The position numbers and the translations under genes were made by a program. From the NCBI GenBank assembly GCA_028718225.1, contig JAQUMI010000003.1:1-62270 (forward strand): 62,270 bases of DNA, read 5' to 3'. This document shows, piece by piece, positions 2,188 to 26,939 of this stretch. The DNA comes from Candidatus Omnitrophota bacterium (GTDB taxonomy: Bacteria; Omnitrophota; Gorgyraeia; Gygaellales; Profunditerraquicolaceae). Below the pieces are notes generated by a model. That model was given only the letters and a program-made list of their open reading frames with translations, searched no databases and was not told where the DNA came from. Position 1 is the stretch's first letter. Every line of letters starts with the position of its first letter.

Positions 2188-2802
2188 TCAGGATTTGATT
2201 ACGGCCTCCCGCCGGCAGCGCGGGCAAAGAACCTTTAGGCGTGTAGAACGGTTAAATGCAGCGGCCTTGCCAGCGGGATTAATTTTTTCTTTTAAAGCCA
2301 ACCCTATGCTCCTTAAATAAAACAAAAGCAGGGAAGCATTGGTAAAAACCAACGTCCCTAACCTTTTAGCCACCCATACGTATTGATCATAAGGCACGAC
2401 CGGCTCACCGCAACACTCGCAAAGCACCAGCTCCTTTTCTATCGTCTGTTTTAAATCCTCTCTTTTTGCGGTAGTCGCCAGGTCAAATTCCCGCGAGAGC
2501 ATAATACCTTTAGCCGTCAGGCAATTCGCTTCGCACTGGCCGCAGAATATGCAGATATCCCAGTGGATAGTTAACTTCCTCCTGGCTCTTCCGCCCTCTA
2601 TCTCATCGTTAAACTCTATGGCTTTTGCCGGGCAAACCTGGGCGCAAGCAGCGCAACCCGTGCAATCTTCTTCATGAAAATAGGGCCGGCCGCGGAAACG
2701 TTCATACGGTTCATGCGCCCTGCGCGGAAAATCGCGGGTGTAAGCAGGGCTAAACAACGACTTTAACGCTTCTTTTAATTCCCGTAATTTTGGTCTGCGC
2801 AT
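2188..2802 (-). CDS. group-4 hydrogenase 2x[4Fe-4S] ferredoxin subunit (EchF/NuoI/HycF-like) with Cys-rich C-terminal extension
   Basis: CTGCAACAQVCP and CIFCGQCEANC cluster motifs. Extra CECCG...CPRC in the C-terminal ~100 aa. Confidence 0.75.
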   Translation of the reverse strand: MRRPKLRELKEALKSLFSPAYTRDFPRRAHEPYERFRGRPYFHEEDCTGCAACAQVCPAKAIEFNDEIEGGRARRKLTIHWDICIFCGQCEANCLTAKGIMLSREFDLATTAKREDLKQTIEKELVLCECCGEPVVPYDQYVWVAKRLGTLVFTNASLLLFYLRSIGLALKEKINPAGKAAAFNRSTRLKVLCPRCRREAVIKS

Positions 2803-2808
2803 ATTTTT

Positions 2809-4566
2809 TTATCTTTTAGGCTTAAAAATCCACTTTAAGGAAAAAATAAAACCCAAACTCTTCAGGATTCCGCTCAAGATGTTATAAATATCCCATTTTT
2901 CAGACCTTAAGAAACGGTAGGCCCCGCGTAATAAAGGGAGCTTTTCTATTGTTTTATAAAATTCCGTAGCCGGGAAATCCGGATAAGCGTAAGCAGTTTC
3001 TCCGCCGGTAAAAAAGTTGTCCTGCCTTGCCTTCTTGACTGCCATAACCCGCCATAATAATAAACCCAATAATAGCGCTGCCGCTATAAATAACGCGACA
3101 AAACCGCTGTTCCACTTGCCGCCGTATTCTAAAACGAATGAAAAAGAAGGAGCGAGGGCATCCCGGATAAAGATATTGGAAAATATACCAAGGATAATGC
3201 AGAGCCCGGAGAGGACCAACAAGGGAGTAAGCATCCTCCAGGAAGTTTCCTTTAATGGCTTCTTAAGATTATTATCCTGGCCCAGGAAGATAGCGTGAAT
3301 AAATTTTATAAAACTGGCCAGGGTCAAGGCGCTGCCGAACATCGCCGCGATTAAAGCGAACATATAAACAAAACGCAGTAAAATTCCACCGGATGAAACC
3401 AGGCCTAAAAGCGCAGCCTGGTAAATCATCCACTTAGAAGCAAAACCATTCAAAGGGGGGATGCCGGAGATGGACAAGGCTAAAATCAGGCCGCTGGCAA
3501 AAGTAAGCGGCATATAGCGGGCCAAGCCCCCTAATTTATCCAATTCAAAAGTCCCTTTCTGTTTCTCTACTGCCCCGCCAACCAGAAAAAGCCCGTTTTT
3601 ATATACGGCATTATTAAACATATGGAATATTGCGCCGATTATTCCTATCGGATTTGCCGTGCCTAGACCTAAAACCATATACCCTGCCTGGCTTATGGCG
3701 TGGTAAGCCAGCAGCTTCCTTAAATCATGCTGCGTAAGCGCCATCATCACCGCAAAAATAATGGTCAGGCTGCCGATAATCAGTAAAAGCGCGATGATAA
3801 AACTGTTTAAAATAAAGAAATCTAAACAAATCCGCGATAAGATGTAAACCCCGAGCAGCTTATCCAGAGACGCCGGTAATATGGCCATTACCGTAACCGG
3901 CGCGCTTTCGCTGGCCGTAGGAATCCAGGTATGGAAAGGGGCTGACCCCAGCTTAGCCAGGCCGCCGATGAGCATAAGGCTAAACACCATCCAGCAAACC
4001 GGCCGGTTTAAGACCATGCTCGTTCCACCGGACATGCTAAAGGAACCTCTAAACAGGCAATAAATATATGTACCGATGATAAAACAGATGCAGGAAAAAC
4101 CCAGGATAGTCGCGGCTTTTCTGGCGCTGAATTTTGAACCTAAACTAAGCAAGGCATAAAGCATAAATATTGAACCAACCCAGGAGAATATAAAGACAAC
4201 AAAATCTGCCGCCAATATCTCCAGGTTAGAGAAGGCTAGCAACCCAAGGAGCCAGGAAAAATAATTGCGCTTTGCGGCCATATAATCCTTGGAATAAAGA
4301 CAGACTAATACGCCAAAAAAATTGGCAAAAATAAGTACCAGGCGGCTTAAGCGGTCCAGCCCGAGCGTAAGCGTATATCCGCTAAAAAGCTGCCTGTTCC
4401 AGGAAAATTGGGGCCGGGAAAATAAAAATATAGCGGCGCACAGGCTAAGCAGGAATATAACCAGGCTTATGTTTTTTTTGAGGCTCTCCTGTTGCCTGAA
4501 GAAAAATAAAACTAAGCCTCCAAGGAGGGGCAGTGTAAAAAGAAAAAACAAGCTCGTATTCATCAT
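2809..4566 (-). CDS. antiporter-like membrane subunit (EchA/NuoL/HyfB/MbhH-like)
   Basis: 585-aa polytopic protein with NuoL/Mrp-type patterns (GSAPFHTWIP, HAISQAGYM). Start overlaps the upstream stop in an ATGA overlap. Confidence 0.8.
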   Translation of the reverse strand: MMNTSLFFLFTLPLLGGLVLFFFRQQESLKKNISLVIFLLSLCAAIFLFSRPQFSWNRQLFSGYTLTLGLDRLSRLVLIFANFFGVLVCLYSKDYMAAKRNYFSWLLGLLAFSNLEILAADFVVFIFSWVGSIFMLYALLSLGSKFSARKAATILGFSCICFIIGTYIYCLFRGSFSMSGGTSMVLNRPVCWMVFSLMLIGGLAKLGSAPFHTWIPTASESAPVTVMAILPASLDKLLGVYILSRICLDFFILNSFIIALLLIIGSLTIIFAVMMALTQHDLRKLLAYHAISQAGYMVLGLGTANPIGIIGAIFHMFNNAVYKNGLFLVGGAVEKQKGTFELDKLGGLARYMPLTFASGLILALSISGIPPLNGFASKWMIYQAALLGLVSSGGILLRFVYMFALIAAMFGSALTLASFIKFIHAIFLGQDNNLKKPLKETSWRMLTPLLVLSGLCIILGIFSNIFIRDALAPSFSFVLEYGGKWNSGFVALFIAAALLLGLLLWRVMAVKKARQDNFFTGGETAYAYPDFPATEFYKTIEKLPLLRGAYRFLRSEKWDIYNILSGILKSLGFIFSLKWIFKPKR

Positions 4567-5180
4567 TTTATCTGAAGCAGGCTTTTAGCTATTTTTTTTA
4601 TATGGTAATAAACCGCGGCGGTAAAATCCAGCATGTTCAAAAACATATTACAGCCCATAGGCGTACATTCTCCGGCGAGCATCCGCTGGTCGTGGTTATG
4701 GCGGTATTTATCCACTAGACTATCAATATGCTCCTCTTTCCTTAAGACTTCCTTGATTAGAGCGGGATTATCCTTTTCTAAAACAAAGACAACCTCTTCT
4801 AAGGCCTCCTTGGTTTTGCTGTAAAGATCTTTATATTCTTCCACAGCTCCTTCACTAAAAAGAAGCTTTTCTTCTATTTTGATCTGGATCCTCTCCAGAA
4901 TATCTTTGCAATAATCTCCGATTAACTCAAAATCCGCGGCTATGTCAGCATAGACGATAACCCGTAATTTTTCCTTTTGCGGCGCATCAGCATGCCCCAA
5001 GTCAATTACGCTCTGATTGATTTCATCTTCCAGGGCATTTAATTTGCTTTCCTCTTCCAGGGCTTTAGAGATCAGCTCCACGTCGTGCTCAATAAAGGCA
5101 TCGTAAGTAAGCTTCCACATACTGGTAGCGCTCTGGGCCATCTGGTTGACTTTTTCCTTAATACTATTCAGGTCTGCCAT
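4563..5180 (-). CDS. PhoU-domain-like protein embedded in the hydrogenase operon
   Basis: All-helical 205-aa protein. FELIGDYCKDILERI resembles the PhoU ERIGDhatNI helix, with ELIGD matching E/DxxxD. The C-terminal half resembles the PhoU-like tail of Na/Pi cotransporters. Overlaps both neighbours (17 nt and 4 nt). Confidence 0.5.
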   Translation of the reverse strand: MADLNSIKEKVNQMAQSATSMWKLTYDAFIEHDVELISKALEEESKLNALEDEINQSVIDLGHADAPQKEKLRVIVYADIAADFELIGDYCKDILERIQIKIEEKLLFSEGAVEEYKDLYSKTKEALEEVVFVLEKDNPALIKEVLRKEEHIDSLVDKYRHNHDQRMLAGECTPMGCNMFLNMLDFTAAVYYHIKKIAKSLLQIK

Positions 5181-6372
5181 AGTAACCCTCCTTTAGCTTA
5201 AGGGTCTTCTCCTGGGATAGTTTAATCAAATCCCAGCCATTCATGACTCTACGCTTATCTATCTTATTAATCACCGCTACTCTCTCCGTGCAGCAATAAC
5301 AGGGATCAACCGCCGCCAGGGTAAGGGTCGCGTCGGAAATCGTACCCCCCACAGCAGAAACTTTATCCGACGCTACATTCATAAAACTCGGAGAACGGAT
5401 CTTATGCCGAACTGGGCGGTTTGTCCCATCACTCTTTAGGTAGTGAAAACACTCCCCTCTGGGCGCTTCGACCCTGCCGATGCCTTCTCCGGCAGGTATA
5501 TCTTTGACCCCGGCATCAATCGGCCCGTCTTTAGGCATCTTATTCAAAGATTGGCGAATAATGCTGATGCTTTCGTATAGTTCCAGGATCCTGACTATCG
5601 TCTTACAAAATATATCCCCGTCTTTCTCCAGGATCACCTTCCAATCCAGCCTGTCTGATACACCATAAGGTTCATCCCGGCGTATATCCATGTTTACGCC
5701 TGAGGCGCGGGCAGTCGGTCCCACAACACACCAGTCAACTACCTGCTGACGGGTTAAAATACCCACGCCCTTTAACCTCATTTTGATTACCGGATCATCC
5801 ATAATCGCGCCGCGGAATAAATCTATCCCCGGCCTTAATTCGTCCAGCGTCTTTTTTAATACCGGTATATCTTCGTCTTTTAGGTCGCGCCTCACACCGC
5901 CGACCTTAAACATAGCGTAATTATTCCGGTTTCCGGTAACCATCTCAAACATATCCAGTACCGGTTCGCGGTATTTCCAGGCCCACATCCAAACCGTATT
6001 ATAACCGATAAAATGCCCGGCCAAGCCCAGCCAAAGAAGATGGCTATGTATCCTCTGCAGTTCATCAATGATTGTGCGGATATACAACGCTCTCTCCGGG
6101 ACAATATTCGCTTCTCCCCCGAGGATATTTTCCACGGCTAAACAATAGGCGTAAGGATGGCTGGATGAACAGATACCGCAGATACGTTCAACCAAGAACG
6201 GCACCTGGTCAAAATGCTTGGATTCAGAAAGTTTTTCTATGCCGCGGTGGTTATAACCGATAATGATATCTATATCAACCACCTTTTCGCCTTCAACATA
6301 AAGCTGGAAATATTCCGGTTCTTCCTGTAAAGGGTGGTAGGGGCCTATAGGTACGATAATTTTATGGCTCAT
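5164..6372 (-). CDS. group-4 [NiFe]-hydrogenase catalytic large subunit (EchE/MbhL/HycE/NuoD-like)
   Basis: N-terminal Ni-Fe ligand motif RICGICSSSH and C-terminal DPCYCCTER, followed by a 38-aa tail. Confidence 0.9.
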   Translation of the reverse strand: MSHKIIVPIGPYHPLQEEPEYFQLYVEGEKVVDIDIIIGYNHRGIEKLSESKHFDQVPFLVERICGICSSSHPYAYCLAVENILGGEANIVPERALYIRTIIDELQRIHSHLLWLGLAGHFIGYNTVWMWAWKYREPVLDMFEMVTGNRNNYAMFKVGGVRRDLKDEDIPVLKKTLDELRPGIDLFRGAIMDDPVIKMRLKGVGILTRQQVVDWCVVGPTARASGVNMDIRRDEPYGVSDRLDWKVILEKDGDIFCKTIVRILELYESISIIRQSLNKMPKDGPIDAGVKDIPAGEGIGRVEAPRGECFHYLKSDGTNRPVRHKIRSPSFMNVASDKVSAVGGTISDATLTLAAVDPCYCCTERVAVINKIDKRRVMNGWDLIKLSQEKTLKLKEGYYGRPE

Positions 6373-6797
6373 TTTTTGTTCCTTAAAGGATAATCGCTTT
6401 CCGGCCAGTCTTCGTTAAGCAGGAGTTTCTTTAAATTCGGATGCCCCTTAAAATTAATCCCCAGCATCTCCCAAGACTCGCGCTCGATCCACTCGGCTGC
6501 CGGAAAGAGTGGAGTAATAGATTGAATTTCGGGCTTAAGCTTATCATTCAGCGTAACGCGCACGGAATAAATTTCGCCGGCCGGATCATTACTAAAATGG
6601 TAAATAACCTCAAAATAGTCCGGCATATCTGTAGCCGAAATCGTAATAAACCTCAGCTCTAAGCTCCTGAATAATACTTGCGTTACTTCAAGAATATCTT
6701 TTTTATCTATGCTAAAGTAGACCCTTTTTATGTATTTCTCCTGCCAGTCTTTTATTTTATCCCGCAGGCTTTCTTTTATTCTATCCCGCATATCCAT
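6369..6797 (-). CDS. NuoC/EchD/MbhK-like 30-kDa-type subunit
   Basis: Start moved to MDMRDRIKE..., because the longer ORF would overlap the small-subunit gene. PLFPAAEWIERESWEMLGINFKGHP is the NuoC signature region. Confidence 0.7.
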   Translation of the reverse strand: MDMRDRIKESLRDKIKDWQEKYIKRVYFSIDKKDILEVTQVLFRSLELRFITISATDMPDYFEVIYHFSNDPAGEIYSVRVTLNDKLKPEIQSITPLFPAAEWIERESWEMLGINFKGHPNLKKLLLNEDWPESDYPLRNKK

Positions 6798-6801
6798 AAG
6801 C

Positions 6802-7227
6802 TTACTTACCTTTCTTGATTTTATCCAGAGCCTTGACAATACCGGCGATGATTGCTTCGGGCTTAGGCGGGCAGCCCGGAATATAGACATCCACCGGTAA
6901 TATTTTATCCAAGGGCTCAGCGACGTTATAACTATATTTGAACATATGCTGCGAACAGGCGCAGGTACCGCAGGCAACGACCACGCAAGGCTTAGGTACC
7001 TGTTCATAAACCTTTTTCATTCTCAAAACAGCTTTTTTATTCATTGCCCCGGTAATTAAGAGCGCGTCCGCATGGCGGGCTGAGCCAATAAGTTGTACGC
7101 CAAAACGCTCCAGGTCAAACCTGGGAGTAAAACAATCCAGCGTTTCAATATCGCAGTTATTGCAGGAGCCCACGCTCATATGAAATACCCAGATTGATTT
7201 AGTGAACGCTTTTTTTATTATATCCAT
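6802..7227 (-). CDS. group-4 hydrogenase small subunit (EchC/MbhJ/NuoB-like)
   Basis: Four Cys of the proximal cluster: GSCNNCDIE, GTCACS, IPGCPPKPE. Confidence 0.85.
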   Translation of the reverse strand: MDIIKKAFTKSIWVFHMSVGSCNNCDIETLDCFTPRFDLERFGVQLIGSARHADALLITGAMNKKAVLRMKKVYEQVPKPCVVVACGTCACSQHMFKYSYNVAEPLDKILPVDVYIPGCPPKPEAIIAGIVKALDKIKKGK

Positions 7228-7228
7228 A

Positions 7229-8140
7229 CTATAATCCCAATAATGCTAATATAACCGCTATTACCCCTAACAACGTCGGGATCCTCCAAAAGAACTTTAA
7301 GGCCTGGTCAATGCGTAGGCGCGGGTTGGTATTTTTAATCAAAATGATTATGGCCAACAACATCAGGTATTTAGCGATTAAAAATAACGGACTTAAAGAA
7401 CAGCCCAAAAATAGGACGATGATAAAGAGCGGCAGGGCATAAAACATTACCGCCTTGGTCAATTTAAATACGGCTAGGGGCAAACCCGAATATTCAATCA
7501 GGGTTCCAGACATAATCTCCTGATCGGCCTCGGCGATATCAAAGAGCCCGATGCCTAACTTTGCCTGTATACAGAATAGGGCGACGAGAAAACTTAAAGA
7601 ACCGGAAAAAGAAAAAATATTTGAGCCGAAAAATAACTGCTGCCGGATTATCTGACCCAGCTGTATTGCGCCGTTGCTCCTGATAATGATGGTAATTATC
7701 GCCAGGATAAAAGGAAGCTCATACGCCAAAACCAGCTTCATCTCCCGCGCCGCTCCCAATGAAGCCAGCGGATTCCTGGAGGCCGAAGCGCCGATCATTA
7801 AAGCCAGCGCAGGGACGGTTAGAAGATAAAAGAGTACGAGCAAATCTCCGCTAAAGCTATCTAAAGGTGCAATTATACTCCTGCCTAAATAAGTAGCGGC
7901 TAATACCGCGCTGATTAAGCCAATGTACGGCGAGAACAAAAATGTGTACCTGGCGCCTGCGGGGATAATGGTTTCTTTGCCTAATAATTTTATTAGATCG
8001 GTAAAATTCTGGTGCCAGGGAGGGCCGATGCGCCACTGCAGCCGCGCAGTAATCTTCCTGTCAACCCAGCCGGCTAAAAGTCCGATTACGGCACTGAATA
8101 AAAATCCCGGAAATATCAGACAATAAAAAATTTGTTTCAT
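7229..8140 (-). CDS. NuoH/EchB/HycD-like membrane subunit
   Basis: Start moved to MKQIFYCL... (ATGA overlap with the upstream stop). Polytopic, with RKITARLQWRIGP typical of the NuoH family. Confidence 0.8.
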   Translation of the reverse strand: MKQIFYCLIFPGFLFSAVIGLLAGWVDRKITARLQWRIGPPWHQNFTDLIKLLGKETIIPAGARYTFLFSPYIGLISAVLAATYLGRSIIAPLDSFSGDLLVLFYLLTVPALALMIGASASRNPLASLGAAREMKLVLAYELPFILAIITIIIRSNGAIQLGQIIRQQLFFGSNIFSFSGSLSFLVALFCIQAKLGIGLFDIAEADQEIMSGTLIEYSGLPLAVFKLTKAVMFYALPLFIIVLFLGCSLSPLFLIAKYLMLLAIIILIKNTNPRLRIDQALKFFWRIPTLLGVIAVILALLGL

Positions 8141-8631
8141 CTTTTCCTCGGCGGCTGAACATCTTCCCTGGACCATCTGCATGAATGTACCGCCAGATGT
8201 TCACCTACAAAATAAATATCCTTTTCCAGGCTTTCCTCCACTTCTCTAATCTCAATGGCTTTTTCGGGACAACTGCTTATACACCTAGGAAGCTGCGTGC
8301 TCCTGCCTACACAATAATCGCAGGCTGAATCAAGATAAGGAATAAAATCCTGAAAGATGATCCCGAACGGGCAGGCCACGGAACAGGATTTACAACTCGT
8401 ACAGAGCATTTTGTGGCGCCGGATATGCCCGTCACTGGCACGTTCCAGGGCATTATGGTAACAAGAATCCACGCAAGGCGCTTCTTCGCAATGCCGGCAG
8501 ATAGTGGCAAAAGTCGCGTATTCACGTAAAGAGGTAATCCCGTTATTCTGCGGATGATAAAAATAATCGCAGGCAACGCGGCATTCCTTGCATTTATTAC
8601 AGATATCTAAATCTATAAATAATCTTTTCAT
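8137..8631 (-). CDS. HycB/HydN/DmsB-type polyferredoxin (four [4Fe-4S] motifs)
   Basis: CNKCKECRVAC, CRHCEEAPCVDSC, CTSCKSCSVACP, CDYC...CISSCP. Confidence 0.75.
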   Translation of the reverse strand: MKRLFIDLDICNKCKECRVACDYFYHPQNNGITSLREYATFATICRHCEEAPCVDSCYHNALERASDGHIRRHKMLCTSCKSCSVACPFGIIFQDFIPYLDSACDYCVGRSTQLPRCISSCPEKAIEIREVEESLEKDIYFVGEHLAVHSCRWSREDVQPPRKR

Positions 8632-8642
8632 CCTCTTATTGC

Positions 8643-8695
8643 CACGCTGGCTGATCTAAAGCGGACACAGTGTCCGCTTTGGCTGAGGCAGCGTG
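8643..8695 (-). other. nested perfect inverted repeat (intercistronic hairpin) between asrB-like and hycB-like genes
   Basis: Inner arms AAAGCGGACAC (8658-8668) / GTGTCCGCTTT (8670-8680) with 1 nt between them. Outer arms CACGCTG (8643-8649) / CAGCGTG (8689-8695). Confidence 0.5.
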
Positions 8696-8703
8696 ACAAG
8701 CAC

Positions 8704-9522
8704 TTAATCCCAGATATCGTGGATATCTTTCAGCTGTTCGTAAGTAAAAACCGGGCCGTCTTTACAGGCGTAGAATTTACCGACCCGGCAATGCCCACAT
8801 TTCCCCAGGCCGCAGGACATACTTTTTTCCATAGACAGGTATATATCCGGCGGTTGAAATCCCAAATCCAGTAGTTTTAAGGTGACAAATTTCATCATAA
8901 TCGGCGGGCCGCAAACTATTGCCGCAGCGCTGGAGTAATCTACCCCGGTATTATCCAATACCGTAGTCACCAGACCCACATTTCCCGACCAACTGCTATC
9001 TCCCACATCTACGCTGACTAAAACATCCACCTTGTCCTTCTTGCTCCATTCAGGAAGAAGGGTTTTATAGACTATATCCCCGGAAGTACGGCTGCCGTAA
9101 CGCAAGACAACTTTATTATAACTATCAATGCCGGAAAATAAACTGAATAATAACGAGCGCAACGGCGCCAGGCCTACCCCGCCGCCGACGATTAAAATAT
9201 CCCTTCCTTTAAATTTATCCAGAGGATAGCCCTGGCCGTAGGGGCCGCGGATACCTACCATATCACCCTTTTGCAGCGTGTGCAATTTAGAGGTGACTTC
9301 TCCCACATTCATTACGGTGAGTTCTAAACTCTCCTTTATTCCCGGATCCGACGATGGGGTAAAGGGCGCCTCTCCTATTCCGGGCACAGTCAATTCAATA
9401 AATTGACCGGTGGCGAAGTTAAAATCCGCCTCGGGCCTAAGGCGGAAAGTCTTTATCGCGTGCGTTTCTTCAATTATTTCTTCAATAACGGCCTTAACCG
9501 GCTGGTATATATTTTTCTTCAT
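8704..9522 (-). CDS. FAD/NAD(P)-binding [2Fe-2S] flavoprotein, AsrB / sulfhydrogenase gamma (HydG) / PyrK-like
   Basis: FNR-like fold motifs (APFTPSS, GGGVGLAPL) and C-terminal CGLGKCGHCRVG 2Fe-2S motif. Confidence 0.75.
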   Translation of the reverse strand: MKKNIYQPVKAVIEEIIEETHAIKTFRLRPEADFNFATGQFIELTVPGIGEAPFTPSSDPGIKESLELTVMNVGEVTSKLHTLQKGDMVGIRGPYGQGYPLDKFKGRDILIVGGGVGLAPLRSLLFSLFSGIDSYNKVVLRYGSRTSGDIVYKTLLPEWSKKDKVDVLVSVDVGDSSWSGNVGLVTTVLDNTGVDYSSAAAIVCGPPIMMKFVTLKLLDLGFQPPDIYLSMEKSMSCGLGKCGHCRVGKFYACKDGPVFTYEQLKDIHDIWD

Positions 9523-10564
9523 ATAATTTCCGTAATATCCGGCGGATATCTATTTTCCCGGGGCAAACCTCAATGCACCTTCCGCATCCACAGCAGGCCT
9601 GATAACCCAAATTAGCAATAAAAAAATCAAATTTCTTCAAATAGCGGTTACGCAGCCTCATGTAGCGCAGGCGCAGGGGATTGGCCCCACCGGCAACCTT
9701 GGTAAAATTTTTTAAGAGACACCCGTCCCAGAGGCGTAGGCGCCGGGAATTGCCCGACGGAGAATCTTCGCTGAGTAAAAAACAATGACAGGTATCGCAC
9801 ATAAATACGCAGCCGTTACATTCAACGCAAGTGTGCATTTCATCCTGCCAGATCTCTGAATTATAGCCTGATAAGACTACCTCCTGTAAGACCTCTTTTT
9901 TAGGAATCTTATGCTGCGCCAAATGCTCATCCATACGCCGGTTTACCGATTCCCTCTTGGCTGTCCTTCCGGAAAGCTGACCTAAGGTCGCCGGCGTTAA
10001 TATACCTTTTAAAGAAAGAGCGATCATTTTTGCCTTTTGCGAAGCTACATCCAACAGATAACCGTTGTTCAGCGGCGAAAGGTTGAAATCAAAACCCTCG
10101 GCCGGATAGGGGTTAATATCAAATGCCCGGCAGAAACAAACTTCTTTAAAATGCGGGCAGTCGCCGGAAATAACTAACGTATTGTCCCTTCTTGCCTTAT
10201 AAAGCGGGTCTACTTCCTTGCCTCCCAGGAATACGAAATCCTGCACTTTTAAAGAAAAAATATCGCAATTCTTTATACCGCAGAGCGCCTGGGGCCTTTC
10301 CTTATAATTGCCGATATCTTCTTTGTAATGCGTAAGGAACGCGCGGGTCGGTTCTGCTACGCGGTATTCATTAAAAACTATCTCTTCCCTGTTAACCTGA
10401 GAGAATTTCTTTAAGAAATAATCTGCGGTAGGAAGCCTGGCCTTGCCTTCGTATTCATACTTAAGCGCAGATTCGGCTTTAACCGGGACATACAGGTCAT
10501 ATTCCTGCTCTATACGCTCATAGAATTTAAGCAGGTCATCGTTTTTGAAAAAATAGGTTTCCAT
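9494..10564 (-). CDS. Fe-S subunit, AsrA / sulfhydrogenase beta (HydB)-like
   Basis: CVECNGCVFMCDTCHC and CCGCGRCIEVCPGKIDI motifs. Size and architecture match the AsrA/HydB family. Confidence 0.7.
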   Translation of the reverse strand: METYFFKNDDLLKFYERIEQEYDLYVPVKAESALKYEYEGKARLPTADYFLKKFSQVNREEIVFNEYRVAEPTRAFLTHYKEDIGNYKERPQALCGIKNCDIFSLKVQDFVFLGGKEVDPLYKARRDNTLVISGDCPHFKEVCFCRAFDINPYPAEGFDFNLSPLNNGYLLDVASQKAKMIALSLKGILTPATLGQLSGRTAKRESVNRRMDEHLAQHKIPKKEVLQEVVLSGYNSEIWQDEMHTCVECNGCVFMCDTCHCFLLSEDSPSGNSRRLRLWDGCLLKNFTKVAGGANPLRLRYMRLRNRYLKKFDFFIANLGYQACCGCGRCIEVCPGKIDIRRILRKLYEEKYIPAG

Positions 10565-11014
10565 TTATGGCTTTAAAAGCCTTTCCCTTACCAGATCGCT
10601 GACTAGTTTACCGTCTGCCTGGCCGGCTATTTTTACGTTGACTTCTTTCATAACTCTGCCCATATCCTTCAGGCCGCTTGCGCCGGTAGCAGCCATAGCC
10701 TCCTCGATTATCTTCTTAATTTCGTCACTGGAGATCTCGGGAGGAAGGTAGGTCTTTAATACTTCCAGCTCTTGCTTCTCTTTTTCGGCCATCTCAAGGC
10801 GTGCGCCTTTGGTGAATTGTTCGATGGAATCCTGGTGCTGTTTTATCTGTTTCTTGATTACGGTAATTACTTCACTATCATCGAGCACCGCCTTCTTTTT
10901 AGCAACCGCCAAGTTCATCATATCCGCCCTTAAAAAACTCAGCACCGAACTCTTTAAAGTATCCCTGGATTTCATCGCCTCTTTGTAATCGTTAAGAACT
11001 TTCTCTTCCAGCAT
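10565..11014 (-). CDS. yqeY: GatB/YqeY domain protein
   Basis: Typical YqeY N-terminus (LNDYKEAMKSRD...) and C-terminal GKLVSDLVRE pattern. Confidence 0.8.
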   Translation of the reverse strand: MLEEKVLNDYKEAMKSRDTLKSSVLSFLRADMMNLAVAKKKAVLDDSEVITVIKKQIKQHQDSIEQFTKGARLEMAEKEKQELEVLKTYLPPEISSDEIKKIIEEAMAATGASGLKDMGRVMKEVNVKIAGQADGKLVSDLVRERLLKP

Positions 11015-11026
11015 ATAGCCTCCCGT

Positions 11027-11929
11027 CTAAAGCAGAATACATTTTTTAAAGTTCACCAGCCTCTTGTTTAAATCCCTCATCGCTAGCCTGCAGGTCCTCT
11101 CCAGGCCAAAGCCTTCAATATTAAAAGAAGCGGCGATAGTCCCGAAAACAAGCCCCTTTCTTATATTTTGCATATTGACTGACTTGGTTTTAGCCAAATA
11201 CCCCATAAAACCCCCGGCAAAAGTATCCCCTGCCCCGGTAGGGTCAATTACCTTATCTGCCGGGTACGCCGGAAGCGAGAAGATGAACTTATCATTATAA
11301 AACAAAACTCCGTGTTCTCCTTTTTTAATCAAAACCATCTTAGGACCGAAGGAGCGCAAAGCGCGGGCTGCCTGAATTAAATTATGTTCCTGGGATAAAG
11401 AGCGCGCCTCTTGGTCATTGGCTACATAGATATGTACTTGCCTTAACAGACGCAGAAGTGATTTACGTTTATTATTAATCCAGTAATTCATGCTATCCAG
11501 AGCAATAAGCTTAGGCGAACGCATATGCCCCAGCAGATGCCGCTGGATGTCCGGGTCAACATTAGCCAGGAAAACGTATTCTATCCTTTTCTGTTCTTCT
11601 GAAATCTTAGGCTTAAATGTACTCAAGACCCCTAATTCGGTATTCAAAGTAATAGCGGTATTTAAATCGCCTTGATATTCTCCTGACCATTGAAAGGTCT
11701 TGCCTGAGGCCTCGCGGATAAGCGCGCTAAGATTAATGCCTTTAGCCTCTAAAAAATCTATATGTTTCTGGGGAAAATCCTTTCCTACAATGGCGACGAG
11801 ATTTACTGGAGTGAAGATGCGCGCGGCCATGGAAAAATGCGCGGCTGAACCGCCAAGCATCTTTTTCCTTTGGCCAAAAGGAGTCTTCACATTATCCAGC
11901 GCCACTGTCCCCAAAACCAGTATACTCAT
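11027..11929 (-). CDS. PfkB-family carbohydrate/nucleoside kinase
   Basis: DPTGAGDTFAGGF anion-hole/ATP motif and overall ribokinase-like pattern. Confidence 0.75.
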   Translation of the reverse strand: MSILVLGTVALDNVKTPFGQRKKMLGGSAAHFSMAARIFTPVNLVAIVGKDFPQKHIDFLEAKGINLSALIREASGKTFQWSGEYQGDLNTAITLNTELGVLSTFKPKISEEQKRIEYVFLANVDPDIQRHLLGHMRSPKLIALDSMNYWINNKRKSLLRLLRQVHIYVANDQEARSLSQEHNLIQAARALRSFGPKMVLIKKGEHGVLFYNDKFIFSLPAYPADKVIDPTGAGDTFAGGFMGYLAKTKSVNMQNIRKGLVFGTIAASFNIEGFGLERTCRLAMRDLNKRLVNFKKCILL

Positions 11930-11938
11930 TCTTCTCCC

Positions 11939-12709
11939 TTAGCGGAGCTTCAACCAAAACACCGCTGCTATAAGTATTCGGTATATCCCAAAAGGGATAA
12001 ATGTATGTTTCTTTATGAAAACAAGGAGGAACTTTATGGCTAAAAGCGCAACCAATAATGAAACAATGAACCCGGCACCTAAAACCAGGAACTGGCCTGT
12101 TTTGAAAGTTCCGGCGCTCTTAACCAGGTCCAGGGCAGTTGCAGCGCACAGCGTAGGGATAGCCAGCAAAAAAGAAAATTCCACTATTGTTTTGCGTTTT
12201 AAGCCAACCGCCAGGCCCCCGACAATTGTTGCTGCGGAGCGCGAAACTCCCGGGATAACGGCAACTGACTGAAAAAGACCGATTAGGAAAGCCTGCGGAT
12301 AAGATATTGACGTTAATTCATCTGAAGAGCCCTGCTTTTCCCCGTGAAAAATTTCAAAAAGAATAAGCGCGATCCCTCCCAAAAATAATGCCCAAAGCAC
12401 TACTGAATCGCTGCTTAAGAAGAAGGTTTTAATAACCTTATACAGCAATGCCCCGATTACCATCGTCGGTAGAAAAGCCGTAAAGATCTTCTTCCAGATA
12501 TCCAGGCCCTTGGACAACTCTTTCCAATAGAGAATAACCACGGCCAGGATCGCGCCGCTTTGGATAGCGATCTCAAAACTTTTGACAAACTCTGTCTGAC
12601 TAATTCCTATACTGCGGCTGGCCAGCATCAAATGCCCGGTAGAAGAAATAGGCAGAAATTCTGTAATTCCTTCAATAATCCCGAGAAAAATAGCTTGTGT
12701 TAAATCCAT
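11939..12709 (-). CDS. uppP: undecaprenyl-diphosphate phosphatase
   Basis: EFLPISSTGHL signature and 8-TM pattern. Confidence 0.9.
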   Translation of the reverse strand: MDLTQAIFLGIIEGITEFLPISSTGHLMLASRSIGISQTEFVKSFEIAIQSGAILAVVILYWKELSKGLDIWKKIFTAFLPTMVIGALLYKVIKTFFLSSDSVVLWALFLGGIALILFEIFHGEKQGSSDELTSISYPQAFLIGLFQSVAVIPGVSRSAATIVGGLAVGLKRKTIVEFSFLLAIPTLCAATALDLVKSAGTFKTGQFLVLGAGFIVSLLVALLAIKFLLVFIKKHTFIPFGIYRILIAAVFWLKLR

Positions 12710-18004: not shown

Positions 18005-18961
18005 CTACCTGCAGTGAACAACATCCCCGGACATAACCTTTTGGGTTATGCCGTTATCCTTACGGATGAGTAACCCTCCGTCGGTATCTATATCCAATGC
18101 CTCTCCTTCAATATGTTTATGTTGACAATATACCTTTACCCGCCGGCCTAAGGTAGCGTTACTCTGGCGCCATTTTTCCAGAATTTGGCTAGCTCCTTTT
18201 TTCTCCAGAAACAGGTAATTTACTTCGAGTTCCCGCAATATCTCCTGCAACAGACTAACCCGGCTTACTTCTTCCTTTTTTTGCTCCTTTAAGGACGTAG
18301 CGGTGCTAATCAAGGACTTTTTATCATTATTCACATTTATCCCGGCGCTGATAATCACGAAGTCTATCCTATCGGTTTCAGCGATTACCTGCGTCAATAT
18401 ACCACAGAGTTTTTTATTGTTTACCAGCAGGTCGTTGGGCCATTTTATCTGGGAAGTAATGCCGGTTGAGTTTTTCAGCGCAGTACAGATACTTACCGCT
18501 GCCAGGAGGGTCAGGATAGACGCCTGCGTAGGAAGCATACTGGGACGTAAAATTAAAGACATATATAAACCTTTATACTTGGGAGAAAACCAATCCCTGC
18601 CCAGCCTTCCCTTGCCTTTAGTCTGGGATTCTGCCAGAATAAGTGTACCGCTGGCAGCGCCCTTTACCCCCAGGTCCATCGCCATATCTATAGTTGAAGT
18701 TAATGTATCGTAATAGAATATCCTCCTGCCAAAGGTCTTAGTGTTCAGAGAGCGGGAGACTTCAAATTCAAATAACCTGTCGGGGCTGGAAGCAAGACGA
18801 TAGCCCAAGTGCGGAACTGCCTCGATATCATAACCTTTGTCTTTTAATTCCTGTATATGCTTCCAAAGAGCCTGCCGGCTGATGTTTAAATAACTGCTTA
18901 TGTCTTCGCCGGAAACATAAGCTTCTTTTTTCTTCAAGAGATTTAAGATTTTATCCTGCAT
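18005..18961 (-). CDS. birA: bifunctional biotin-[acetyl-CoA-carboxylase] ligase / biotin operon repressor
   Basis: N-terminal wHTH, GKGRLGRDW biotin-binding loop and C-terminal SH3-like tail. Confidence 0.9.
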   Translation of the reverse strand: MQDKILNLLKKKEAYVSGEDISSYLNISRQALWKHIQELKDKGYDIEAVPHLGYRLASSPDRLFEFEVSRSLNTKTFGRRIFYYDTLTSTIDMAMDLGVKGAASGTLILAESQTKGKGRLGRDWFSPKYKGLYMSLILRPSMLPTQASILTLLAAVSICTALKNSTGITSQIKWPNDLLVNNKKLCGILTQVIAETDRIDFVIISAGINVNNDKKSLISTATSLKEQKKEEVSRVSLLQEILRELEVNYLFLEKKGASQILEKWRQSNATLGRRVKVYCQHKHIEGEALDIDTDGGLLIRKDNGITQKVMSGDVVHCR

Positions 18962-19995
18962 TATTTTTTAAGGTACTCCTCGAATTTTTGCCAAAATGGA
19001 TCTGTCCCGGGATGGGTCAGCTTAAACTTATTTTTTCCTTCAACGACAGTAATTCCTTTTTCCTTCTCCACTACTTCTCCGGCGATACTCGCGGGGATAC
19101 CCTCCCTGCTTAGAGCATCTACTGCTTTTTGGGCGTTGGACTTATCAATCGTAGCCAGTAAAGTTCCTTCGCTTATTGCCCGATAAGGATCAATATTAAA
19201 GCATTCACAAGTTTTCTTAACTGTCTCCTGGATTATTATCTTATCCAGCCAGATATGCATACCCACCTGGCTGTGGCCGGCAATTTCATAAAGTCCGCCA
19301 AAAACCCCGCATTCGGTGGCATCATGCATAGCCGTGACTTTTCCGGCTTTTGCTACGATAAGCGCGTCTTTTACCGTAGACATCTGGTAATAAACATCCT
19401 GGGCGCACCTTACGAATTCTTTTCCGAAACGCTTTTCCAGATATTTAGGGAAATACGCCGCCATCAATCCGGTAGTTTCGATTGCCGCTCCTTTAGAGAT
19501 AATGACCGCGTCCCCTATTTTTGCCTGGGGCCTGACCAGTTTTTCTTTTTTATCAATACCAAAAACGGTTGCTCCGCCGACAAAAGGATAATTACACCCT
19601 GCGTAGCGGGCAGTATGCCCGGTCACTATGGAGATGCCCAGTTTTTTGCACTCGCTATCCACCGTATTCCACATACGGATTAATTCATCTTCCGTAATTT
19701 CCGGGGGAAGATTTAAATCCACGGCTAAATATCTGGGCGCGATACCGCTAACCGCTACATCGCTGGCTAATATATGCACGGCAAACCAGGCCGCTTTTTC
19801 CATACCCAGACCAGCAGCGATATAAAAAGGATCTGTAGATAGAACCATGACCCTATCTCCCAGGTCAACCACGCCAAAGTCAACCCCGGAAAAAGGCTTA
19901 ACTATGACCGACGAATCAGGATTACCTAGTTTCGGATAAATGAACTTAGTGAAAAATTCAGGATGGATTTTACCTAACGCGGGCAACTCGCTCAT
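18961..19995 (-). CDS. AIR synthase-related protein (PurM/ThiL/HypE/SelD superfamily)
   Basis: DFGVVDLGDRVMVLSTDPF and ...VTGHTARY... PurM-fold patterns. Lacks the C-terminal Cys motif of HypE. Confidence 0.7.
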   Translation of the reverse strand: MSELPALGKIHPEFFTKFIYPKLGNPDSSVIVKPFSGVDFGVVDLGDRVMVLSTDPFYIAAGLGMEKAAWFAVHILASDVAVSGIAPRYLAVDLNLPPEITEDELIRMWNTVDSECKKLGISIVTGHTARYAGCNYPFVGGATVFGIDKKEKLVRPQAKIGDAVIISKGAAIETTGLMAAYFPKYLEKRFGKEFVRCAQDVYYQMSTVKDALIVAKAGKVTAMHDATECGVFGGLYEIAGHSQVGMHIWLDKIIIQETVKKTCECFNIDPYRAISEGTLLATIDKSNAQKAVDALSREGIPASIAGEVVEKEKGITVVEGKNKFKLTHPGTDPFWQKFEEYLKK

Positions 19996-21155
19996 TTTTT
20001 TTCATACAGCGGAGACATAGCGCGCAGCTTTTCAACTACTTTAGGCAGGTTCTCCAGTAAAAATTTTATATCCTGCTCTTTGGTCCATCTGCCCATACTG
20101 ATTCTAAGAGAACCGTGAGCAGTCGCATGGTCCAGGCCAATAGCCAAGAGCACGTGTGATGGCTCCAAAGAACTGGAAGTGCAGGCTGAACCGGTGGAAA
20201 CGGCAATCCCGAGCATATCCAAACTTAAAAGGATAGACTCCCCTTCTATATATTTTATGGAAAAATTGACGTTATTGGGCAGCCGCAGCTGAGGATGACC
20301 GTTAAGCCGGACATCGGGAATTTTTTCAGGTATTTCTTGGATTAATTTACCACGTAAAACTGCCAAGGTTTTTGCTTCTCTGCCCATATCCTTAGCGCAT
20401 AATTCTACTGCCTTGGCTAAACCGACTATACCGGGAACATTGTGCGTGGAAGCGCGCCTGTCTCTCTCCTGGTCTCCGCCGCATAAAAATCTGCCGATAC
20501 GCACCCCTTTTCTAATATACAATGCGCCGACGCCTTTCGGGCCGTAAAACTTATGGCTGGAGAGCGATAGGAGGTCAACACTCAGCTCATTAACATTTAC
20601 CGGAATGTGGCCGACAGTCTGCACCGCATCGGTATGAAAATAAATTCCCCTTTCCCTAGCGATCTTACCGATTGAGGAAATAGGCTGGATTGTCCCGATT
20701 TCGTTATTGGCGTGCATAATGGAAATAAGGATTGTTTTATCGGTGATCGCTTTTTTGACTTCATCGGGAGAAACCAATCCGTCTCTATCCACTCCCACAT
20801 AAGTGATCTGAAAACCCTTTTTTTCCAATACCTTACAAGGCTCAATTATGGCGTGGTGTTCTACGGCGGAGGTGATAATATGGTTACCTTTATCCGCTAA
20901 GGCATCGGCCACTCCGAAAATAACATTATTATTGGATTCGGTGCCCCCGGAAGTAAAGATTACTTCTTCAGGCCTGGCTCCTAAAAATTCAGCAGTCGCT
21001 GCGCGGCTATCTTCCAGCGCCTTTTTAGCCTCTTGCCCATAAGCGTGCAGACTGGAGGCATTACCGAACTTCCCAAAAAAATACGGCTCCATGGCTTTTG
21101 CTACTTCCGGGTCACAGGGAGCGGTGGCCGCGTAATCCAGATAAACCTTTTTCAT
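19992..21155 (-). CDS. nifS: cysteine desulfurase (NifS/IscS class)
   Basis: PLP-lysine motif SSHKFYGPKG and active-site loop GSACTS. Confidence 0.9.
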   Translation of the reverse strand: MKKVYLDYAATAPCDPEVAKAMEPYFFGKFGNASSLHAYGQEAKKALEDSRAATAEFLGARPEEVIFTSGGTESNNNVIFGVADALADKGNHIITSAVEHHAIIEPCKVLEKKGFQITYVGVDRDGLVSPDEVKKAITDKTILISIMHANNEIGTIQPISSIGKIARERGIYFHTDAVQTVGHIPVNVNELSVDLLSLSSHKFYGPKGVGALYIRKGVRIGRFLCGGDQERDRRASTHNVPGIVGLAKAVELCAKDMGREAKTLAVLRGKLIQEIPEKIPDVRLNGHPQLRLPNNVNFSIKYIEGESILLSLDMLGIAVSTGSACTSSSLEPSHVLLAIGLDHATAHGSLRISMGRWTKEQDIKFLLENLPKVVEKLRAMSPLYEKK

Positions 21156-21958
21156 CTCCTAATCACCTCGTTTAAACTGCCGGTGCGATAACCTTCCATA
21201 TCCGCAGTTATATAATTATAACCTAGTTTTTTTAATTTGTCGACTATGCTTTGGCGCTTACTGACCAACCGGCCAATTTCTTTTTCCGGCACTTCCAGAC
21301 GGCAAAGACCGTTGTAATGCCTGACCCTGACCTGGCTAAAGTTTAACCCCCTTAAAACCCCCTCTGCCTTATTGATGCGTTCAAGTATGGGTTGAGAAAT
21401 CCGCACTCCGTAAGGAATGCGCGAAGCTAGGCACGCCTGAGCCGGCTTATTCCAGGTCTTCAGGCCCAGCTTTTTACTTAAAGCCCGGATATCCGCTTTA
21501 GTAAACCCCGCTTCCTGCAGCGGAGAACGCACCTGCAATTCTTTTTTCGCTCTTTCGCCCGGTCGAAAATCGGTTTTATCCGAAAGGTTGCTTGCATCAA
21601 AAATAAATTTAAGCTTACCTTTACGGGCCAGAGTTTTTAACTTTATAAAAAGCCTTTTTTTACAGAAATAACAACGGTCAGGGGTATTGGAAACAAATTT
21701 TTTATCTTTTAGTTCGGATGTCTTGATTATCTTATGTTTTGCCCCGAATTTACGCGTTATTTCCTGCGCCAACAATAGTTCTTCCTTTGGGTACGTTAAA
21801 GATCTGGCGGTAACCGCAAGAATCTTATTCTTCGGGAGAGCGGATAAAGCGGTTTTCAACAAAAGCGTGCTATCTACGCCACCGGAAAAAGCTATCAGGC
21901 AAGAACCGCTCTTCTTAAGTATTTTCCTAAGTTTGAATAATTTATTTTTAAGCTGCAT
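21152..21958 (-). CDS. LarE-like PP-loop ATP-dependent sulfur transferase (TIGR00268-type)
   Basis: Start moved to MQLKNKLFKL..., because the longer ORF overlaps the upstream gene. SGGVDSTLL PP-loop and QACLASRIPYG Cys motif as in LarE. Confidence 0.7.
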   Translation of the reverse strand: MQLKNKLFKLRKILKKSGSCLIAFSGGVDSTLLLKTALSALPKNKILAVTARSLTYPKEELLLAQEITRKFGAKHKIIKTSELKDKKFVSNTPDRCYFCKKRLFIKLKTLARKGKLKFIFDASNLSDKTDFRPGERAKKELQVRSPLQEAGFTKADIRALSKKLGLKTWNKPAQACLASRIPYGVRISQPILERINKAEGVLRGLNFSQVRVRHYNGLCRLEVPEKEIGRLVSKRQSIVDKLKKLGYNYITADMEGYRTGSLNEVIRR

Positions 21959-21965
21959 TGAATCC

Positions 21966-22373
21966 TTAAAAATGCACTTCCATCGCGCGCGGCGGACAAA
22001 TCTTGACGCAGAGCTCACAGGCAATACACTTTTTATTATTAAAGAGTACCTTGCGCGTCTGGGGATCAACTATCAGGGCCTCAGTCGGGCAGATCGGCAC
22101 GCATACACCGCAGTTTGTACATTTTTTATCGTTCCTGACTACATCCTGGCTTAAGGACTGGATGCGCACCCCGCAGGATTGCAGGTATTCTACTCCTTTG
22201 TCAAAGTTTTCTCTCTTACCGGTCAATTCCAAGACCATCAACCCTTCTTCGTTCGGGGTGACAAAGGCCTTAAGGATATTAAACTGCAGGTTAAATTCTT
22301 TGACCAGATTATATACTATAGGCTGGTCAACCAAGCGATGCGGAAAATGCAAGACTATTCTCTTAGAGACCAT
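21966..22373 (-). CDS. NIL domain - 2x[4Fe-4S] ferredoxin fusion (MA1822-like)
   Basis: N-terminal NIL-like pattern (QPIVYNLVKEFNLQFNILKA), C-terminal CTNCGVCVPICP and CIACELCVKICP. Confidence 0.75.
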   Translation of the reverse strand: MVSKRIVLHFPHRLVDQPIVYNLVKEFNLQFNILKAFVTPNEEGLMVLELTGKRENFDKGVEYLQSCGVRIQSLSQDVVRNDKKCTNCGVCVPICPTEALIVDPQTRKVLFNNKKCIACELCVKICPPRAMEVHF

Positions 22374-22375
22374 GC

Positions 22376-23590: not shown

Positions 23591-23616
23591 CAGTTACCTC
23601 TAATAAAAAATTTTGA

Positions 23617-23838: not shown

Positions 23839-23850
23839 TTTAGTCTCCTT

Positions 23851-26189: not shown

Positions 26190-26191
26190 AG

Positions 26192-26428: not shown

Positions 26429-26439
26429 AGCAATCCTTT

Positions 26440-26916: not shown

Positions 26917-26939
26917 GCTCCCCCCCCTTACCTGCCAGG

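Follow-up and report, generated by a model that had tools for sequence, protein, structure and literature searches.

To our knowledge, all characterised group-4 [NiFe] hydrogenases use ferredoxin, formate or carbon monoxide (CO) as the electron source. An association of asrA and asrB genes with group-4 hydrogenases is already known from genomes. A combination of asrA, asrB and cooF with a group-4 hydrogenase was noted in Saganbacteria, with Omnitrophica sequences as the nearest relatives (PMC6349859, 2019), clusters in Elusimicrobia were described as the 'Mbh-Mrp-oxidoreductase type' (bioRxiv 10.1101/765248), and group-4b clusters with homologues of the beta and gamma subunits of sulfhydrogenase I (SHI) and a formate dehydrogenase (Fdh)-like protein were reported in 2026 (PMC13582414). 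Kole_0573 and Kole_0574 have been listed among the hydrogenase genes of Kosmotoga (PMC5674127). The papers on Omnitrophota describe the membrane enzyme as a ferredoxin-coupled, Mrp-linked 4g hydrogenase and leave a flavoprotein arm unmentioned. Here, we analysed such an operon in a window of 62,270 nt, which is the whole stretch of DNA taken from contig JAQUMI010000003.1 of a Candidatus Omnitrophota genome. To what was known the window adds a reduced variant that has neither Mrp nor Fdh-like genes and carries a PhoU gene. Also new are the universal presence of the AsrAB arm in the assessable members of the Omnitrophota clade and the cultured Kosmotoga olearia as a model.

The operon lies at positions 2188-10564 on the minus strand, where ten densely packed genes were assigned with Pfam and NCBIfam. 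In the order of transcription they encode an AsrA-like, an AsrB-like, a HycB-like, a NuoH-, a NuoB- and a NuoC-like protein, the large subunit of the hydrogenase, a PhoU-domain protein, a NuoL-like and a HycF/NuoI-like protein. The families, order and coordinates given in the initial annotation were recovered for all ten genes. Most adjacent genes abut or overlap, and the sole sizeable gap is a 72-nt spacer between asrB and hycB. Neither AsrC nor a formate dehydrogenase, a CO dehydrogenase or a hyp gene turned up among the 50 open reading frames (ORFs) of the window that were scanned, in agreement with the annotation, which had stated this for AsrC and the two dehydrogenases. Since the AsrA- and AsrB-like proteins are homologous to the beta/gamma arm of SHI, we favour the reading that the operon encodes an NAD(P)H:H+ oxidoreductase, a single membrane complex in which the AsrAB arm would be joined by a HycB connector to a reduced group-4 core, and we consider the case for it evenly poised.

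The large subunit (402 aa, 5164-6372, minus strand as for all genes of the operon) matched the Pfam families Complex1_49kDa and NiFeSe_Hases and contains the motifs RICGICSSSH and DPCYCCTER, in which all four Ni-Fe cysteines are kept. When compared with solved structures, it reached 283 bits with MbhL (6CFW_L, 2e-83), 257 bits with HycE (7Z0S_E, 1.7e-75), 212 bits with Nqo4 and 172 bits with MbsL, whereas hydrogenases of group 3 and group 1 gave at most 53 bits. Scores of 45 bits with the ShyA model and 20 bits with the HydA model likewise placed the catalytic subunits outside group 3. The NuoB-like small subunit (141 aa, 6802-7227; Oxidored_q6, E 3.9e-28) exceeded the cut-off of the NCBIfam NuoB subfamily and has the CxxC...C...C(PP) cysteines. 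For the NuoC-like subunit (Complex1_30kDa), the ORF as listed (6369-7007) overlaps nuoB and is too long; as the orthologues begin directly after nuoB, the ATG at 6797 is almost certainly the true one, which leaves a protein of about 142 aa at 6369-6797. The HycF/NuoI-like subunit with two [4Fe-4S] clusters (204 aa, 2188-2802) scored 92.6 bits with the NCBIfam model of the formate hydrogenlyase Fe-S subunit, and its best full-length solved relative is HycF of E. coli (7Z0S_F, E 5.7e-16). A NuoH/HycD/MbhM-like membrane subunit is encoded at 7229-8182 (NADHdh, E 1.9e-59), with 317 aa as an ORF and an alternative ATG 14 codons in. Judged by the ligand motifs, the closeness to group 4 and the presence of NuoB/C/I- and NuoH/L-like genes in one cluster, the enzyme is a group-4 [NiFe] hydrogenase.

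The initial annotation had called this hydrogenase Ech-like, which was right for the count of six subunits, as NuoL-, H-, B-, C-, D- and I-like proteins are all present, and probably did not hold for the ancestry, as the relatives are Mrp-linked and Mbh-like. In a comparison that was made without any 4e reference sequence, the nearest relatives of the large subunit were Mrp-linked complexes of at least 13 subunits. The class given by HydDB to the membrane hydrogenases in the Omnitrophota papers is 4g and not 4e, and in the description of HydDB, group 4g clusters loosely and has no known function. The Mrp-linked relatives and the published 4g calls argue indirectly against a membership of the large subunit in the Ech group (4e). 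This placement is based on relatives in the PDB, a neighbour-joining tree without bootstrap and the published calls, with references of 4b, 4c, 4e, 4f and 4g not included. In that tree, which is indicative only, the large subunits linked to asrAB formed one clade. The large subunit has thousands of relatives, and the best 120 are 81-90% identical; the named organisms among these are Candidatus Omnitrophota or Omnitrophica, with the exception of a few labels that are generic or probably stem from mis-binning.

The arm consists of three proteins. The AsrA/SHI-beta-like Fe-S protein (356 aa, 9494-10564; Fer4_22) scored 144 bits with the NCBIfam model ShyB, 119 bits with HydB and 96 bits with AsrA, all under the equivalog cut-offs (323 bits for AsrA). 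Its best solved relative is the beta subunit of P. furiosus SHI (9NEZ_B, E 2e-24), and 15 cysteines were invariant in 60/60 orthologues. The asrB gene overlaps the end of asrA by 29 nt and encodes an AsrB/SHI-gamma-like flavoprotein (272 aa, 8704-9522; FAD_binding_6, NAD_binding_1 and DHODB_Fe-S_bind), which by family should have FAD, an NAD(P)H site and a [2Fe-2S] cluster. With 225 bits it stayed under the cut-off of the AsrB model (289 bits) and also under those of ShyC and HydG, and it is therefore named only a homologue of the SHI gamma subunit, of which that of P. furiosus is the best solved relative (9NEZ_C, E 1.6e-52). The motifs RGPYG and GGGxGxAP and the [2Fe-2S] cysteines C237, C242, C245 and C253 were invariant in 62-63 of the 63 orthologues. 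The beta and gamma subunits in 9NEZ have been described as the NADPH-oxidising subunits of SHI (PMC13582414). The connector is a HycB/CooF-like protein with four [4Fe-4S] clusters (164 aa, 8137-8631; Fer4_11) whose best solved relative is HycB of the E. coli formate hydrogenlyase (7Z0S_B, E 5.6e-14); its 16 cysteines were conserved in 62-68 of 68 orthologues. From the invariance of the AsrB motifs and of the AsrA and HycB cysteines across 60-68 orthologues it follows that the arm is under purifying selection as a cofactor-binding unit. Mapped by tblastn over the Omnitrophota loci (L001-L080), the identity of the AsrA-like protein to that of the window was bimodal (62-77% or 38-51%), whereas those of the AsrB-like protein (55-83%) and of the large subunit (64-98%) varied smoothly. 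In some lineages, the AsrA-like subunit may thus have evolved faster or have been replaced.

The conservation of the link was examined in 80 species-representative loci with large subunits of 98-64% identity, nearly all from Omnitrophota and one from Elusimicrobiota, onto which the proteins of the window were mapped. Where the contig reached at least 2 kb upstream of hycB, asrA and asrB were present in the same order in every case (55/55), and the arrangement was also seen in a genome from Elusimicrobiota. The gap between the stop of asrB and the start of hycB had a median of 6 nt and was 10 nt or less in 36/59 loci. The next 50%-identity cluster outside the phylum, found in a search of cluster representatives, was that of the cultured Thermotogota member Kosmotoga olearia, with a large subunit of 58% identity. 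Its locus (CP001634, Kole_0561-0575) has overlapping stops and starts and the order asrA-asrB-hycB-nuoH-nuoB-nuoC-large subunit-nuoL-mbhDE-mnhB-nuoK-mrpD-E-F-G-nuoI-hycI-hypF-hypC-hypD. The same core order was found in the deeper metagenomic lineages L083 (55% large-subunit identity), L084 (47%) and L089 (42%), of which L083 has a molybdopterin/Fdh-like gene in addition, placed between asrB and hycB; the archaeal-type clusters L085-L088, which are of similar identity, have no asrAB. A molybdopterin/Fdh-like subunit was absent from the window, from the mapped or annotated Omnitrophota loci and from Kosmotoga, and the siroheme protein AsrC was found neither in the window nor in any related locus. 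On these sequences, the asrAB arm is universal in the assessable genomes of the Omnitrophota clade. The coupling of asrAB and hydrogenase at the operon level, proposed in the initial annotation, was borne out by this synteny, by Kosmotoga with its co-transcription (see below) and by the three deeper lineages, and the co-occurrence across the 55 loci speaks against the refuting case named there, a clade with another known partner and no synteny of the asrAB-like genes elsewhere.

Genes for a Rex-like, redox-sensing repressor were found near the operon in four loci of different lineages, just upstream of asrA in L089 (5377-6024) and L031 (2690-3289) and nearby in L022 (3205-3801) and L054 (3461-4075). 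As Rex is a sensor of NADH/NAD+, these neighbours would fit a role of the operon in the NAD(H) balance. The flanks are also syntenic in many Omnitrophota (window 10565-11929 and 406-2149; L001-L075); the upstream genes encode a PfkB-family kinase and YqeY, and the downstream genes a PG_binding_1 protein and a GH1 glycosidase. In the Omnitrophota MAG L004, about 4 kb separate the operon from a second hydrogenase-like pair upstream (3-1181), with a large subunit 27% and a NuoB-like protein 42% identical to those of the window.

Direct evidence on transcription comes from Kosmotoga. According to Pollo et al. 2017 (PMC5674127, Table S2), start and stop sites from RNA-seq place Kole_0568-0575 in a single transcriptional unit, which runs from the large subunit through hycB and asrB to asrA. 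When correlations were computed from the RPKM (reads per kilobase per million mapped reads) values of the 15 libraries in PMC5674127, asrA (r = 0.99) and asrB (r = 0.98) followed the large subunit on a log scale, whereas the flanking genes Kole_0576 (r = 0.40) and Kole_0577 (r = -0.15) did not. Co-transcription of asrAB with the hydrogenase is thereby directly evidenced for the Kosmotoga orthologue, and we infer it for the window. Beside the large subunit lies Kole_0567 (L081 11194-13988), which is a 'pseudogene' in the published tables; gene calling gave three intact ORFs for a NuoL-like protein (599 aa), MbhD/E and MnhB, and the expression level equals that of the neighbours. The 'pseudogene' may be a split MrpA-like gene.

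In the window, the asrB-hycB spacer (8632-8703) holds the stable hairpin that had been reported in the initial annotation (about 8639-8699, minus strand; free energy -33.9 kcal/mol, z -4.3), and 0/200 shuffled sequences folded as well. It has no U-tract and is directly followed by the Shine-Dalgarno sequence and the ATG of hycB, and for these reasons it is not a canonical intrinsic terminator; the terminator scan did not call it either. No promoter-like site was found on the coding strand of the spacer. The sequence of the hairpin is common to L001 only, and in the other lineages the spacer is missing or its palindrome is unrelated. From the short gaps and the lineage-unrelated palindromes we conclude that the hairpin is a variable insert at a permissive junction and not a conserved boundary. 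The annotation had considered that transcription might terminate fully at this point, which is disfavoured by the missing U-tract, the lack of conservation and the co-transcription of the Kosmotoga orthologue. A repeated element of the REP (repetitive extragenic palindromic) or MITE (miniature inverted-repeat transposable element) type was rejected as the hairpin occurs as a single copy in the window, and a conserved regulator was rejected as well, for the spacers elsewhere are absent or hold unrelated palindromes. Junction spacers longer than about 45 nt always held a strong palindrome, unrelated in sequence between lineages; such junctions were seen in the window and in L004, L005, L006, L007, L026, L035, L047, L050, L054, L055, L060, L061 and L077. 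The pattern suggests that inverted-repeat elements inserted several times independently at this one place, or that a stem-loop between the two cistrons is selected for there. At the other end of the operon, an intrinsic-terminator-like hairpin with a T-run was found on the minus strand at 1622-1654 (14-bp stem with 7 GC pairs). This strong site comes after the conserved PG_binding_1 gene (1676-2149) and is the likely end of the transcription unit. At its upstream end, the stop of yqeY abuts the start of asrA, so that transcription may start further upstream than asrA. The asrB-hycB stretch was matched in DNA runs of landfill and groundwater metagenomes, and no match of this region was obtained in the RNA runs searched.

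The membrane arm of the window is reduced. Between large subunit and nuoI, only the window and L001-L008 have an interval of 2.3-2.5 kb, with the PhoU gene and one NuoL-like gene, while the distance is 3.8-8.1 kb in 42 other loci. Annotation of this interval in L069 and in Kosmotoga verified that the Mrp set is complete there (MbhD/E, MnhB, NuoK-like, MrpD, E, F and G). As relatives with large subunits of 64-84% identity have at least 13 subunits including Mrp, the six-subunit core of the window is, from the gene content compared, a secondary reduction of an Mrp-linked, Mbh-like ancestor. Across the clade, the membrane arm spans from a full Mrp module over one NuoL-like subunit to none. The NuoL/MrpA-like antiporter-type subunit that was kept in the window (585 aa, 2809-4566; Proton_antipo_M) has MrpD (7QRU_D) and MbhH (6CFW_H) as its best solved relatives, and its lysines in the transmembrane helices (TM) 7, 8, 11 and 12 are kept. 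These positions and a glutamate in TM5 are what we take, from established knowledge of complex I and Mrp, to be the ion-translocation residues.

The gene for the PhoU-domain protein (205 aa, 4563-5180; PhoU, E 1.8e-20) overlaps both neighbours. The protein scored under the cut-off of the NCBIfam PhoU equivalog, had weak matches in the PDB to PhoU homologues and keeps a D-x-E-x-I-G-D-like motif. In 47 of the 74 assessable Omnitrophota loci the gene was present, without exception in the interval from the large subunit to the first NuoL-like gene, and it was absent from the Kosmotoga, L083 and L084 loci. We know of no role of PhoU-domain proteins in hydrogenases.

Gene content, ligand conservation, the universal synteny and the co-transcription in the Kosmotoga orthologue are observed, and from the sequences we infer a physical complex with NAD(P)H as the partner, a coupling to ions and the possible directions of the reaction. 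The arm would be composed of the AsrB/SHI-gamma-like flavoprotein, the AsrA/SHI-beta-like Fe-S protein and the HycB/CooF-like four-cluster connector. Electrons would pass between NAD(P)H and the FAD and [2Fe-2S] cluster of the AsrB-like protein, the Fe-S clusters of the AsrA-like protein and the four [4Fe-4S] clusters of the HycB-like protein, and from there by the two [4Fe-4S] clusters of the HycF/NuoI-like subunit and the [4Fe-4S] cluster of the NuoB-like subunit to and from the Ni-Fe site. The wiring would be as in formate hydrogenlyase, with AsrAB replacing FdhF. The net reaction NAD(P)H + H+ <-> NAD(P)+ + H2 would be reversible and linked to ion movement via the NuoH- and NuoL-like membrane subunits. 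Judged from the standard potentials of about -320 mV and -414 mV, forming H2 from NAD(P)H costs about 18 kJ/mol and would be favoured by ion influx or by a low H2 pressure. An inward ion flow could therefore aid H2 evolution from NAD(P)H, or H2-driven NAD(P)+ reduction could export ions.

Several points weigh against this NAD(P)H-coupled, ion-motive complex. In the membrane arm, SWVGS stands at the position of the TM5 glutamate of MrpD and MbhH, as is typical of the class of the retained NuoL-like subunit, in which SWVGS or FWGxxG replaces this residue, and the comparison indicates that the glutamate-bearing MrpD-like paralogue was lost in the window lineage with the rest of Mrp. L084, with a large subunit of 47% identity, has no antiporter-like subunit at all (5808-12011, order asrA-asrB-hycB-nuoH-nuoB-nuoC-large subunit-nuoI), and for this reason ion coupling is uncertain in the reduced forms; rnf genes lie a few kb upstream in this locus. 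In the reduced form of the window, ion coupling is plausible, as in Ech with its two membrane subunits, and less secure than the initial annotation had assumed. The K. olearia operon is weakly expressed on pyruvate, with RPKM values of 40-140 compared to about 1900 for its [FeFe] hydrogenase. A search of the window for a Rex operator gave only matches with three mismatches, none near the operon and in a number not clearly above chance. No biochemical work on any asrAB-linked group-4 complex was found in the literature searched, and the published Omnitrophota reconstructions assume ferredoxin coupling. Soluble group-3 enzymes interconvert NAD(P)H and H2 without a membrane. Finally, the docking of ferredoxin on an Fe-S subunit requires no gene of its own, so the complex may have a partner besides NAD(P)H, or a more important one. 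This also limits the claim of the initial annotation that the flavoprotein is the only electron input: a formate or CO dehydrogenase module was indeed not found among the scanned ORFs of the window, but the exclusion of ferredoxin was not justified.

The docking of ferredoxin leads to the best surviving alternative, a three-way junction, in which ferredoxin would be the main donor at the HycB- or NuoI-like subunit, as in Mbh and Ech, and AsrAB a second port. Such an enzyme could divide its electrons between H+ and NAD(P)+, as a membrane ferredoxin:NAD(P)+ oxidoreductase with an H2 valve, or could form H2 from ferredoxin and NAD(P)H in a confurcation-like manner. The large subunit is closest to the ferredoxin-dependent MbhL, the relatives retain the whole Mrp module like Mbh, and ferredoxin coupling is what the Omnitrophota models in the literature presume. 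For the group-4b clusters with SHI beta/gamma homologues and an Fdh-like protein, a branched Fe-S network that bifurcates or confurcates was proposed in the 2026 survey (PMC13582414), and the sister lineage L083 carries exactly this molybdopterin-type gene. The window, the Omnitrophota and the Kosmotoga relatives, however, lack the Fdh-like third branch, and no ferredoxin gene is specifically linked to the operon. A candidate for a dedicated ferredoxin, the NIL-domain protein encoded upstream of asrA in L072-L077, was rejected: its orthologue in the window (21969-22373) adjoins an HcyBio gene and is for this reason part of another pathway, homocysteine synthesis. Moreover, from what is generally known of the Nfn, PyrK and SHI families, FAD of the AsrB/SHI-gamma type is not among the known bifurcating flavins. 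We regard the three-way junction as unlikely, although it deserves to be kept in mind.

Alternatively, the AsrAB-like arm might reduce elemental sulfur (S0), polysulfide or sulfite, which would make the complex a membrane-bound sulfur reductase that depends on H2 or ferredoxin. The scores with the Asr models (AsrB 225 bits, AsrA 96 bits) are in line with this, as are the SHI beta/gamma subunits, which the cited literature classically ties to S0 reduction. However, all Asr and Shy scores fall under the curated equivalog cut-offs, neither the window nor the related loci have the siroheme AsrC, and the four Ni-Fe cysteines are kept, unlike in the sulfane-reducing Mbs and Mbx enzymes, with MbsL at 172 bits compared to 283 bits for MbhL; a sulfur-linked function is therefore improbable. 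That asrAB encodes a separate soluble NAD(P)H:acceptor oxidoreductase, split by the hairpin from an ordinary ferredoxin-dependent Ech-type hydrogenase, is largely refuted and the most improbable of all, as the 72-nt spacer with its very stable hairpin, which would suit two units, is outweighed by the synteny in 55/55 loci, in several phyla and down to 42% large-subunit identity, by gaps of 1-10 nt or overlaps in most species, by a hairpin without a U-tract in a spacer without a promoter-like site on the coding strand, by palindromes unrelated between lineages and by the single, tightly co-expressed transcriptional unit of the Kosmotoga orthologues.

If the NAD(P)H:H+ oxidoreductase reading is true, such an NAD(P)H-linked member of group 4 would be a new functional class, as we know of no characterised group-4 enzyme with an NAD(P)H-coupled, ion-motive H2 chemistry and found none in the literature searched. 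Its assembly would moreover be an independent counterpart to that of complex I, in which a hydrogenase-like module was joined to an NADH module. More tentatively, and with somewhat less confidence than we have in the reading for the window, the whole clade may consist of ion-motive, pyridine-nucleotide-coupled group-4 hydrogenases, a 'complex I that reduces protons', with an AsrAB module acquired independently of NuoEFG. This would be the main hydrogenase of many Omnitrophota; these and Kosmotoga could spend an ion gradient to vent NAD(P)H as H2, or could conserve energy when H2 reduces NAD(P)+. The Omnitrophota models treat the membrane hydrogenase as ferredoxin-dependent and overlook a flavoprotein arm that is present in every assessable genome; therefore, the redox-balance and H2-flux inferences for this widespread phylum of groundwater, landfill and sediment may need revision. 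Surveys that take ShyC/AsrB-like genes as markers of cytoplasmic sulfhydrogenases may in part count these membrane complexes. Since the same operon is present in the cultured K. olearia (Kole_0561-0575), the hypothesis is directly testable.

Elsewhere in the window, a sulfur-incorporation cluster is encoded on the minus strand at 18961-24774, with genes for an AIR-synthase-related protein, a class-V aminotransferase/cysteine desulfurase, a QueC-like PP-loop protein, a PALP enzyme, the NIL-domain ferredoxin with two [4Fe-4S] clusters (21969-22373) and the COG1900 homocysteine-synthesis enzyme HcyBio. It is the same NIL-ferredoxin that adjoins the hydrogenase operon in L072-L077. On the same strand, a thioredoxin-reductase-like flavoprotein and a flavodiiron protein with metallo-beta-lactamase and flavodoxin domains follow at 25290-28777, and the pair would be the oxygen or NO detoxification equipment that is typical of a strict anaerobe.

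Among the known systems, the 'Mbh-Mrp-oxidoreductase type' group-4 clusters and the group-4b clusters share with the window the asrA/asrB/cooF(hycB)-like genes directly upstream of the hydrogenase. L083 matches the Fdh-bearing architecture, whereas the window, the Omnitrophota and Kosmotoga are without a molybdopterin/Fdh-like subunit, and the window lineage further differs by the absence of Mrp and the PhoU-domain gene. The closest solved relatives of the AsrA- and AsrB-like proteins are the beta and gamma subunits of the soluble hydrogenase I of P. furiosus (group 3b, 9NEZ), and the Fe-S, FAD and NAD(P) motifs are kept. The catalytic module of the window, however, belongs to the membrane-bound group 4 and not to the cytoplasmic group-3 delta/alpha pair, and an extra HycB-like connector is placed between the modules. 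With the Salmonella AsrABC enzyme the AsrA-like and AsrB-like domain architectures are shared, but the window has no AsrC and its proteins score under the curated AsrA and AsrB cut-offs.

For the hydrogenase itself, the closest solved large subunit is that of the Mrp-linked P. furiosus Mbh (group 4d, 6CFW; 283 bits), and the long-form relatives have an Mbh-like gene set (MbhD/E, MnhB, NuoK-like, MrpD/E/F/G). Mbh takes its electrons from free ferredoxin and has neither a flavoprotein arm nor a HycB-like subunit, whereas the window lineage lacks the Mrp module. HycB and HycF of the E. coli formate hydrogenlyase FHL-1 (group 4a, 7Z0S) are the closest solved relatives of the corresponding proteins, and there a soluble dehydrogenase is wired through HycB. 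The window has AsrAB-like partner proteins where FHL-1 has the molybdoenzyme FdhF, and it encodes NuoC and NuoD separately, with no fused HycE. Ech (group 4e) agrees with the window in its six types of core subunit (NuoL-, H-, B-, C-, D- and I-like) and has no AsrAB or HycB arm, whereas the window has AsrA, AsrB, HycB and PhoU in addition; the resemblance would be convergent, because the relatives of 64-84% identity carry at least 13 subunits including Mrp. Complex I (Nuo) likewise combines a homologue of the group-4-type membrane and Q-module with a flavoprotein module that oxidises pyridine nucleotides. The module of the window, however, is of the AsrB type with FAD and [2Fe-2S] plus the AsrA type and not the FMN-containing NuoEFG, and the substrate would be H+/H2 and not quinone, because the acceptor site keeps the Ni-Fe ligands.

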